A DNA stretch of 64,000 nt, from assembly GCF_003018115.1 (NCBI RefSeq), contig NZ_CP027457.1. The stretch is one strand, 5' to 3'. This DNA comes from Escherichia coli (GTDB taxonomy: Bacteria > Pseudomonadota > Gammaproteobacteria > Enterobacterales > Enterobacteriaceae). Positions 51,001 through 54,000 of the stretch are shown in pieces; the stretch's first letter is position 1, and each line of letters starts with the position of its first letter. Position numbers: made by a program.

Positions 51001-54000
51001 CCCTGCGGAGAGGTTGATTTCATTACCCGGAATGACCATCGCAATAGACAAACCGCCAACAGAGCTTAAGCAGATTGCCGCCACCATCAGCAGTAACATA
51101 GCCAGTGGATAGTCGCGCCCTGGGTTACTCATTTCATTGACGTGGGTTGCGGAAGCTTCTACGCCCATATAACTCAAAATGAAGGCAACAAATACAACCA
51201 GGGTGCCCACTTTAGAGAAGTCAGGGAAGAAGGTCTTCGAATCCATTTCGATAGCAACGGGGGCACCGGAGTGCAGATAAATAGCCGCTAATGCAATCAA
51301 AATAAATGCAGGTAACAGGATACCGGCGAAGAAGCCAACTTTAGCAATTCGCGCCGTGTATTTCGTGCCACCAAACTGCGTTAATGCCAGCGCCCAAAGA
51401 ATGATGAGTGCTGCAATAGTTTTGGTAATGGGGTCTTCATTCAGCGCTGGCCATTTCAGAATGTAGGAGAGTGCCCCTAACACGAAATAGAGCATCGGAA
51501 TAAAACCAATGGCGATTTGCAGATAGCCAAATGAGATCGCTGCAAATCCCCATCTCGGCCCCAGAGTATTTGATACCCAGGCGAAGACACCACCTTCTTC
51601 CCAGCCGTCGACGGTGGCCATTTCCGCAGCACAAAGTCCCACGGGAATAAACCATAAAATCCCGCCTAATAGCAGGAAGAAGACTAATGAAAAGCCCGAT
51701 GTTGCGAAGGTAGGGTATTCATAAACAGCCATTACCATCGATGCCGTTATGGCAAAAAAGCCGAGTAATGTGAGCTGCTTAGCTTTACCTGTCTGTACTG
51801 ATGTAGCCATATTATCCCCCTAAAACGGTATTCCTGTCGGAACCGCACCAGTTTTGTTCTGAAGCGTATTCAGAACAATATTTTCCGTTGCTAATGCCAG
51901 TGAACAGACTTTGGAAATTGTCCCGAAACGGGTTCGTTTCGGGACACCGTTACCGTTAAACGTTATCAGGTATGTTTAAAGCTGTTCTGTTGGGCAATAC
52001 CCTGCAGTTTCGGGTGATCGCTGAGATATTTCAGGGAGGCTTTGTAGTCTTCCAGCAACAGTTCAGCAAAGTCCATTTCGAAGCCGCGACGACACATAAT
52101 GCGCATCACCACGATGTCGGTGGCTTCACCGCCGAGAGTGAAGGCCGGAACCTGCCAGCCGCGCAGACGCAGACGTTCAGAGAGGTCGTACAGGGTGTAT
52201 CCCGGATCTTCACCATCTTTCAGTTTGAAGCAAACCGCCGGGATGCCTTCGTCCGGGCGACCCGTACAGATGAACTCATACGGCCCCAGTTTGGCGATTT
52301 CATCCGCCAGATAGGCAGCGACCTGGTAGGAAGCATTCTGTACTTTGGTATAGCCTTCACGACCAAGGCGCAGGAATTCATAGTACTGTGCAATCACCTG
52401 ACCTGCCGGGCGGGAGAAGTTGATGGCAAAAGTACCAATCTGACCACCCAGGTAGTCAACGTTGAACACCAGTTCCTGCGGCAGCGCTTCTTCGTCACGC
52501 CAGATAACCCAGCCGCAGCCCAGCGGAGCCAGACCGAATTTATGGCCTGAAGCACTGATCGATTTCACACGCGGCAGGCGGAAGTCCCAGACGATATCCG
52601 GGGCGACGAACGGTGCCAGGAAGCCACCGCTGGCAGCGTCGATGTGCATGTCGATGTCGATACCGGTGTCGGCCTGGAATTTATCCAGCGCATCGTGCAG
52701 CGGCTGCGGGAACTCATAGTTACCGGTGTAGGTCACGCCGAAAGTCGGCACCACGCCGATGGTGTTTTCGTCGCAGGCTTCAATCATGCGTTTCGGGTCC
52801 ATAAACAACTGACCGGGGCGCATAGGGATCTCACGCAGCTCCACATCCCAGTAGCGGGCGAATTTATGCCAGCAGATTTGTACCGGACCGCACACCAGGT
52901 TTGGTTTATCCGTTGGTTTGCCTGCAGCTTCCATACGCTTGCGCCAACGCCATTTCATCGCCATCCCGCCGAGCATACAGGCCTCGGAAGAACCAATGGT
53001 GTTGGTGCCAACGGCCTGACCATTTTTCGGCGCAGGCGCATGCCACAGATCGGCAACCATATTTACGCAACGCAGGTCGATGGCTGCGGATTGCGGATAT
53101 TCTTCTTTGTCGATCCAGTTTTTGTTAATGGATAAATCCATCAACTTGTGGACGTTTTCGTCGTCCCAGGTCTGGCAGAAAGTGGCCAGGTTCTGACGAG
53201 CGTTGCCATCAAGATATAATTCGTCATTGATAATCTGAAATGCGACATCGTCGCGCATTTCGTGCAGCGGAAAACGTTTTGATTCTGCGATAGTGGAAAT
53301 AGACTTCGCACCAAAACGTGAATCGAGTAGTTCCGACCTTAAATCCGTTACTTGCTTCTTATCCATTTTAAACTCCTTAAAATGATTGGATCGCATTAAA
53401 AAAGTAGGATTTATCGATAAAGTAAGCAAGTGCAAAGGACTCGTGTTTAAATAACAAAATCCTAATGTTATTTATCGTGAGATATTGTTAGGATAATATT
53501 TTTTCATTAAAAAACAATGCAATAGAGAATTCTTGGGTGGTGGTAAGGTGTTTTATGTTGTTATTTTTATGCGCTTTCTGTGCCTCCTGAATTATCACGT
53601 AAAAATCAGACCTTAAAATATCACTATTAGTACTTGGTTATTATTTTGAACGCATTTATAAAATTATTACATAAAAATAGCGAATATTGCTAAAATCCCC
53701 GCCAACGATGTGTTGACGGGGCTGTTATTATTTTGGCAATAATACTCCAGTATAAGTATTTACCGGATGAGAAAGATATTGTTTAACGGCAGTGTTAACA
53801 TTCTCTACCGTCATTTGTTTCAACAATTGCTCCTGCTCAGTCCATGCTGCAGGATCGTCATATTGAATAAGACTATTTACAATAGTGTTCGCTAATTGTT
53901 GAACGCTACGCTGTTGGATATCGAGGCTGCGCTGAACGTTTTGCTGGTATTCATTCAGTTCTTGCTCACTGATCCCTTTAGCCAGACGCTTAACCATCAC

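Follow-up and report, generated by a model that had tools for sequence, protein, structure and literature searches.

The 20-mer TTAGGATTTTGTTATTTAAA upstream of gadB in this Escherichia coli sequence is almost certainly the known GAD box of gadBC, the RcsB/GadE activator site of the operon. Within the 64-kb stretch of DNA that was analyzed (hereafter, the window), it occurs as a single exact match on the − strand (53465..53446), and it is still the sole match when up to 3 mismatches are allowed, against 0.01 expected from 100 dinucleotide-preserving shuffles of the 64-kb window. The same sequence has been printed, letter for letter, as a known GadE site (PMC4918353). The first-pass annotation had described an exact consensus GAD box on the gadB strand, in an AT-rich region upstream of gadBC, and it is right on exactness, strand, AT-richness and position. 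The match is 20/20 and is found once; it lies on the − strand, as does the gadB coding sequence (53366..51966), and 80–99 nt ahead of the ATG of gadB (53366), the products GadB and GadC being 100% identical to those of K-12. The pqqL–gadB intergenic region that contains it, 361 bp in length, has a G+C content of 30.5%, compared with 48.1% for the whole window. The coordinates originally assigned to the motif, 53436-53470, do enclose it but form a loose bracket with 10 and 5 nt of slack, and the precise extent is 53446–53465. Similarly, the sequence is indeed that of the published GadE site, but the label "consensus" is circular, the gadB and gadA sites being themselves the source of the consensus. 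The site combines the attributes by which a GAD box is recognized, namely the 20-bp sequence, a location 5' of a glutamate decarboxylase operon on the strand that encodes it, and a distance of 16 bp to the −35 hexamer. A GAD box at gadBC is already known, indeed textbook knowledge, and no open question is touched by its presence here. The features of the locus are listed below in window coordinates.

53728..56523, − strand: pqqL, a 931-aa ORF whose stop borders the 361-bp gap before gadB.
53594..53613, − strand: match to the GadX/GadW motif, AGGTCTGATTTTTACGTGAT, with 1 mismatch, at about −220..−201; the sole match in the window, with 0.39 expected, and not significant alone.
53488-53494, + strand: inverted TTAGGAT, at −95..−101 from the gadB transcription start site (TSS) and 22 nt upstream of the GAD box.
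53446..53465, − strand: GAD box TTAGGATTTTGTTATTTAAA, at −72..−53 relative to TSS 53393; exact, unique match, identical to the K-12 gadB and gadA boxes.
53443..53469, no strand: projected region of DNase I protection by RcsB plus GadE (−50..−76), transferred by homology from the gadA promoter (PMC2887963).
53441..53472, no strand: projected K-12 GadE ChIP-exo peak, which contains the box and extends 5–7 nt past either edge.
53424..53429, − strand: −35 hexamer TTGCTT, matching TTGACA at 3/6 positions, 16 bp downstream of the box and the same at 6/6 positions in gadA and gadB.
53403..53416, − strand: RcsB box CGATAAATCCTACT, a repressor site abutting the −10 hexamer; its extent is estimated and approximate, and the window is identical to K-12 gadB here.
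53401..53406, − strand: −10 hexamer TACTTT, matching TATAAT at 3/6 positions, with a 17-nt spacer and a C immediately upstream.
53393..53394, − strand: predicted TSS, 27–28 nt before the ATG, carried over from K-12, whose sequence is identical here.
53373..53378, − strand: Shine-Dalgarno sequence AAGGAG of gadB, kept in all aligned gad leaders.
51966..53366, − strand: gadB, glutamate decarboxylase B, 466 aa, intact, with 0 differences from K-12 GadB in the translated ORF; identical DNA carries this annotation in RefSeq.
50275..51810, − strand: gadC, glutamate:GABA antiporter, 511 aa, intact, an ORF with 0 differences from K-12 GadC.

The published geometry of the GAD box places it 16 bp upstream of the −35 hexamer, with its centre at about −62/−63 from the TSS (PMC2887963). 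In the window, the centre of the box falls at −62.5 if the TSS is 53393 or at −61.5 if it is 53394. These two start positions were derived from different sources. Placing the primers of the "−101 to +24" fragment (PMC2887963) on gadA gives a +1 that lies 27 nt before the ATG, and since the alignment of gadA with the window is gap-free from the box to the ATG, the window +1 is therefore 53393. The GadE peak centre at 1570159.5, by comparison, is listed with a "distance to TSS −62.5" (PMC4918353 Suppl. Table 1), which therefore moves the TSS one base further upstream, to 53394 in the window. The uncertainty between the two sources is 1 nt, and the box is upstream of the start under both. The first-pass annotation had considered a motif lying downstream of the actual start as an argument against its reading; relative to the K-12-derived TSS (53393/53394), the box instead occupies −72..−53.

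The core promoter itself is conserved but poor. Its −10 hexamer TACTTT is invariant across 15 Escherichia gad promoters, and a σ70 consensus scan of 53300–53800 did not flag the real gadB promoter because both hexamers match the consensus at only 3/6 positions. The missed scan was rejected as evidence against the promoter, given that 3/6 hexamers are expected of an activator-dependent promoter; they also explain the dependence of the gadB promoter on its activator. An RcsB box abutting the −10 hexamer mediates repression, and at gadB this box is conserved except for a C that replaces G at its left end (PMC2887963). The RcsB box of the window has this gadB-type left-end C, in CGATAAATCCTAC. An Rfam covariance-model scan of 53200–53900 on both strands gave no match up to E = 1.

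Binding and expression data from K-12 agree with this assignment. An activating, RpoS-associated GadE ChIP-exo peak has been mapped at gadBC to NC_000913.2 1570144–1570175 (PMC4918353 Suppl. Table 1). The comparison with mapped GadE sites that the first-pass annotation had proposed is favourable to it, as this peak projects to 53441–53472 and encloses the box; the projection assumes no indels, both intergenic regions being 361 bp long. It also uses a coordinate offset between NC_000913.2 and.3 that we take to be 1976, a value consistent with the total lengths. At the identical gadA box, the DNase I footprint of RcsB plus GadE covers −50..−76, and the heterodimer has an apparent binding constant of about 10 nM, whereas GadE alone produces neither a footprint nor a shift (PMC2887963). 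Consequently, naming GadE as the binding protein was correct as to its involvement but incomplete, the binder being the RcsB/GadE heterodimer and not GadE alone. The expression of gadB falls from 2532 to 29 FPKM in ΔgadE (log2 −6.44, about 87-fold; PMC4918353). While binding, the TSS and the need of the box for activation are taken from the K-12 literature, the same events would be expected in the present strain. The degenerate 15-nt GadE ChIP-exo motif TTARGAWWWWAAATA missed the box even when 2 mismatches were allowed, and it had 6 matches in the window against 3.9 expected. On both grounds, it was rejected as a finder of further GadE sites in the window, and it is a poor descriptor of the GAD box.

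The GAD box of K-12 gadBC (Castanié-Cornet & Foster 2001; Ma et al. 2003; Castanié-Cornet et al. 2010; Seo et al. 2015) is orthologous to the window site. The two loci share the 20-mer, the 93 nt before the TSS, the leader, the distances to the −35 hexamer, TSS and ATG, and both proteins, with the window being identical to K-12 gadB, gap-free, from −93 to the ATG. They differ only in the DNA beyond −93: all 14 SNPs in the 361-bp intergenic region (53367-53727) lie upstream of the identical stretch and include a lineage-specific cluster at −94..−99. Conservation across 53367-53727 is sharply bimodal, with every SNP distal and no differences from −93 to the ATG, in GadB or in GadC.

The box of gadA, in the acid fitness island, has the same 20-mer, −35 and −10 hexamers and spacing, and both the heterodimer footprint and the mutational data come from it (PMC2887963). 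In contrast to the window site, it is at another locus, its RcsB box starts with G where that of the window starts with C, and its flanks are unrelated: gadA and gadB promoters agree at 20/20 positions in the box, at 2/16 in the 16 nt from the box to the −35 hexamer, and at 10/40 in the 40 nt upstream. A broader resemblance is to the sites of RcsB with its partners (RcsAB box; LuxR/FixJ-type), in that TTAGGAT, the left half of the box, is similar to an RcsB half-site and RcsB must be joined by an auxiliary LuxR-type partner for binding (PMC2887963). Unlike the RcsAB box, the GAD box has GadE rather than RcsA as the partner, and it is asymmetric; the assignment of its halves to GadE versus RcsB was left open in PMC2887963.

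With the RcsB box, −35 hexamer, −10 hexamer and Shine-Dalgarno sequence all present, the cis half of the acid-resistance circuit is intact at this locus as judged from its sequence. The broader initial claim, that the acid-resistance control circuit is intact here, stands for the cis elements, gadB and gadC, but does not extend to the trans factors. The limit is set by gadE, rcsB, rpoS and gadX/W, none of which falls within the window, so that "intact" can describe only the cis elements and the structural genes. In K-12, gadE is located in the acid fitness island near gadA.

Conservation of the box was examined across and beyond the species. Of 5426 complete E. coli genomes, 5425 contain a match to a 30-nt query consisting of the box ±5 nt, with a median of 2 matches each, corresponding to gadA and gadB. 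Among 40 evenly spaced rows of the resulting ranking, 36 alignments were 100% identical across the box, and 4 had one mismatch in the 30 nt. Three divergent classes of gadB promoter were aligned, comprising 2 of the 4 one-mismatch rows and 1 row whose match ended at the 3' edge of the box; their differences were in the 3' flank, and the box was unchanged. Across the 61 nt upstream (−77..−137), a 28-mer is common to 462 genomes, and the full stretch is identical in 5 of the 5426.

In a search of 100,044 species, each represented by one genome, 11 exact copies of the 20-mer turned up. E. coli, E. albertii, E. whittamii and Escherichia sp. E1V33 account for 8 of them, at 79–80 nt before a gadA- or gadB-type ATG. 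As these cross-species loci were chosen for an exact box, its invariance among them exists by construction, and therefore only the divergence of the flanks is informative; at some of the loci, upstream homology stops exactly at the box edge. The 3 exact hits in Lentisphaeria/Bacteroidales MAGs were rejected as GAD boxes; they are followed by neither a gad gene nor a gad promoter sequence and were treated as chance because roughly 0.5 or more such hits are expected for an AT-rich 20-mer in 2×298 Gb. Chance hits aside, the exact box was confined in this search to Escherichia, each time about 80 nt ahead of a gad start codon. The representative genomes of E. albertii and E. whittamii carry the exact 20-mer at the gadA-type promoter only; these species either lack gadBC or have at least one base changed in its box.

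Several other explanations were weighed against the GAD-box reading. The identity of the gadA and gadB boxes might be a by-product of recent duplication or gene conversion instead of selection, and conversion does act on this gene pair, whose coding sequences are identical at 1361/1401 positions and whose promoters are similar from the −35 hexamer to the ATG. However, a conversion tract would be contiguous, whereas the box is an isolated 20/20 island between flanks of 2/16 and 10/40. Moreover, a G→C change in the K-12 gadA box (point mutant M1) abolishes both binding and GadE activation (PMC2887963), and we accord the by-product explanation a practically negligible probability. It is also highly improbable that the 20-mer serves mainly GadX/GadW, which are AraC-type regulators, with GadE acting elsewhere or indirectly. 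A review-style passage holds that GadX/GadW can repress by competing for gad box sequences (PMC6128205). Nevertheless, the GadX/W motif AKGKCTGWTWTTWWYMYVAK has no match at the GAD box, and its sole match in the window (53594–53613) lies about 150 bp further upstream, spanning the junction of the projected K-12 GadX ChIP-exo peaks P6/P7 (53558–53639). The K-12 GadX peaks project to 53558–53682 and 53308–53348, off the box, whereas the GadE peak falls on it. Likewise, the effect on gadB of losing GadX is a 1.5-fold change (log2 −0.60), compared with 87-fold for the loss of GadE (PMC4918353). The GadX/W sites were placed by ChIP-exo coordinates and the motif match only.

A further alternative accepts the box as intact but supposes that the circuit is idle in this strain, owing to the loss or mutation of a trans factor (gadE, rcsB, rpoS, or EvgA/YdeO/GadX/GadW). 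The genes of all these factors lie outside the window, that of ydeO just past its right end as judged from the related genome F9792, and lesions in rpoS and in the acid fitness island occur in natural E. coli isolates. Despite the divergence of the surrounding DNA, however, with flanks about 99.5% identical to the nearest relatives, GadB, GadC and the promoter from −93 to the ATG are the same as in K-12, and such identity amid diverged surroundings speaks for a working system that is still under purifying selection. An idle circuit is therefore considered unlikely. Nothing in the data contradicts the explanation of the 20-mer as the GAD box of gadBC.

The lineage-specific cluster next to the conserved stretch deserves separate comment. 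At 53487-53494, the window has ATCCTAAC where K-12 has ATTCGCGT, and these substitutions at −94..−99 create a second, inverted TTAGGAT. Together with the left half of the box, the inverted copy forms ATCCTAA-N22-TTAGGAT. The five complete E. coli genomes, of 5426, that share the 61-nt haplotype are the O169:H41 ETEC clade and LR882990. There is a slim chance that the inverted copy acts as an extra RcsB/GadE-type half-site, which would alter the strength of gadBC induction or its RcsB-dependence in O169:H41-like ETEC. A 7-mer in AT-rich DNA is weak evidence for a half-site, and the tetranucleotide at the cluster exists in 4 versions in 4 strains, marking a hypervariable spot. The cluster is probably neutral.

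The window belongs to E. coli, and its nearest matches are O169:H41 ETEC genomes. Several chromosomes of this type match the 501 bp around the site at 100% identity and have the flanking genes annotated as pqqL and gadB; the neighbouring DNA is 99.4–99.5% identical to that clade, which makes the window a near relation of those genomes and not one of them. The gadB promoter region is present in 5406 of the 5426 complete E. coli genomes. Six matches to this region are on plasmid-labelled records and represent either real plasmid copies of gad or assembly or labelling artefacts. On the − strand at 53697-53721, 7 nt past the pqqL stop (53728-53730), a 10-bp G+C-rich hairpin (CCCCGTCAAC-ACATC-GTTGGCGGGG) is followed by ATTTTAG. 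This hairpin is probably the pqqL terminator, which would insulate the gadBC promoter; it was missed by the terminator scan because its T-run is short. In F9792, which is 100% identical over the promoter and is otherwise one of the nearest matches, yddA is split by the IS4-family element ISVsa5 (L003 11800-14823). The yddA of the window (58978-60663) is intact, with an ORF of 561 aa, as in other O169:H41 genomes, which sets the window apart from F9792. The far side of the window, 1-25000, encodes an Rhs element core protein, the T3SS effector espR1 and narZ/narU. It is covered to at least 80% in 756 of 5426 genomes, with a best match of 99.4% in 4 pieces, and is variable, in contrast to the conserved side that carries gadBC.

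The arrangement most likely corresponds to class-I-type activation of a weak σS/σ70 promoter by RcsB/GadE bound at about −62. In such a scheme, GadE would be made in acid or in the stationary phase and would then pair with RcsB present at basal level. The resulting LuxR-type heterodimer would cover the 20-bp box plus a few neighbouring bases, some 62 bp ahead of the TSS. Once bound, it may recruit or stabilize RNA polymerase (σS or σ70) on the poor TTGCTT-17-TACTTT core promoter, thereby switching on gadB (glutamate decarboxylase) and gadC (glutamate/GABA antiporter). High levels of RcsB, by way of the second RcsB box abutting the −10 hexamer, would lead to repression, and GadX/GadW may contribute input from sites further upstream. 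The AT-rich tract upstream of gadBC is an H-NS-silenced region in K-12.

For readers of such annotations, the refinement offered here is that the element is a site for the RcsB/GadE heterodimer and not for GadE alone, and that a cis element alone cannot certify the whole circuit. The value of the finding is one of annotation: the gadBC promoter in this strain carries a complete, K-12-identical cis set for glutamate-dependent acid resistance, which enables the passage of E. coli through the stomach.
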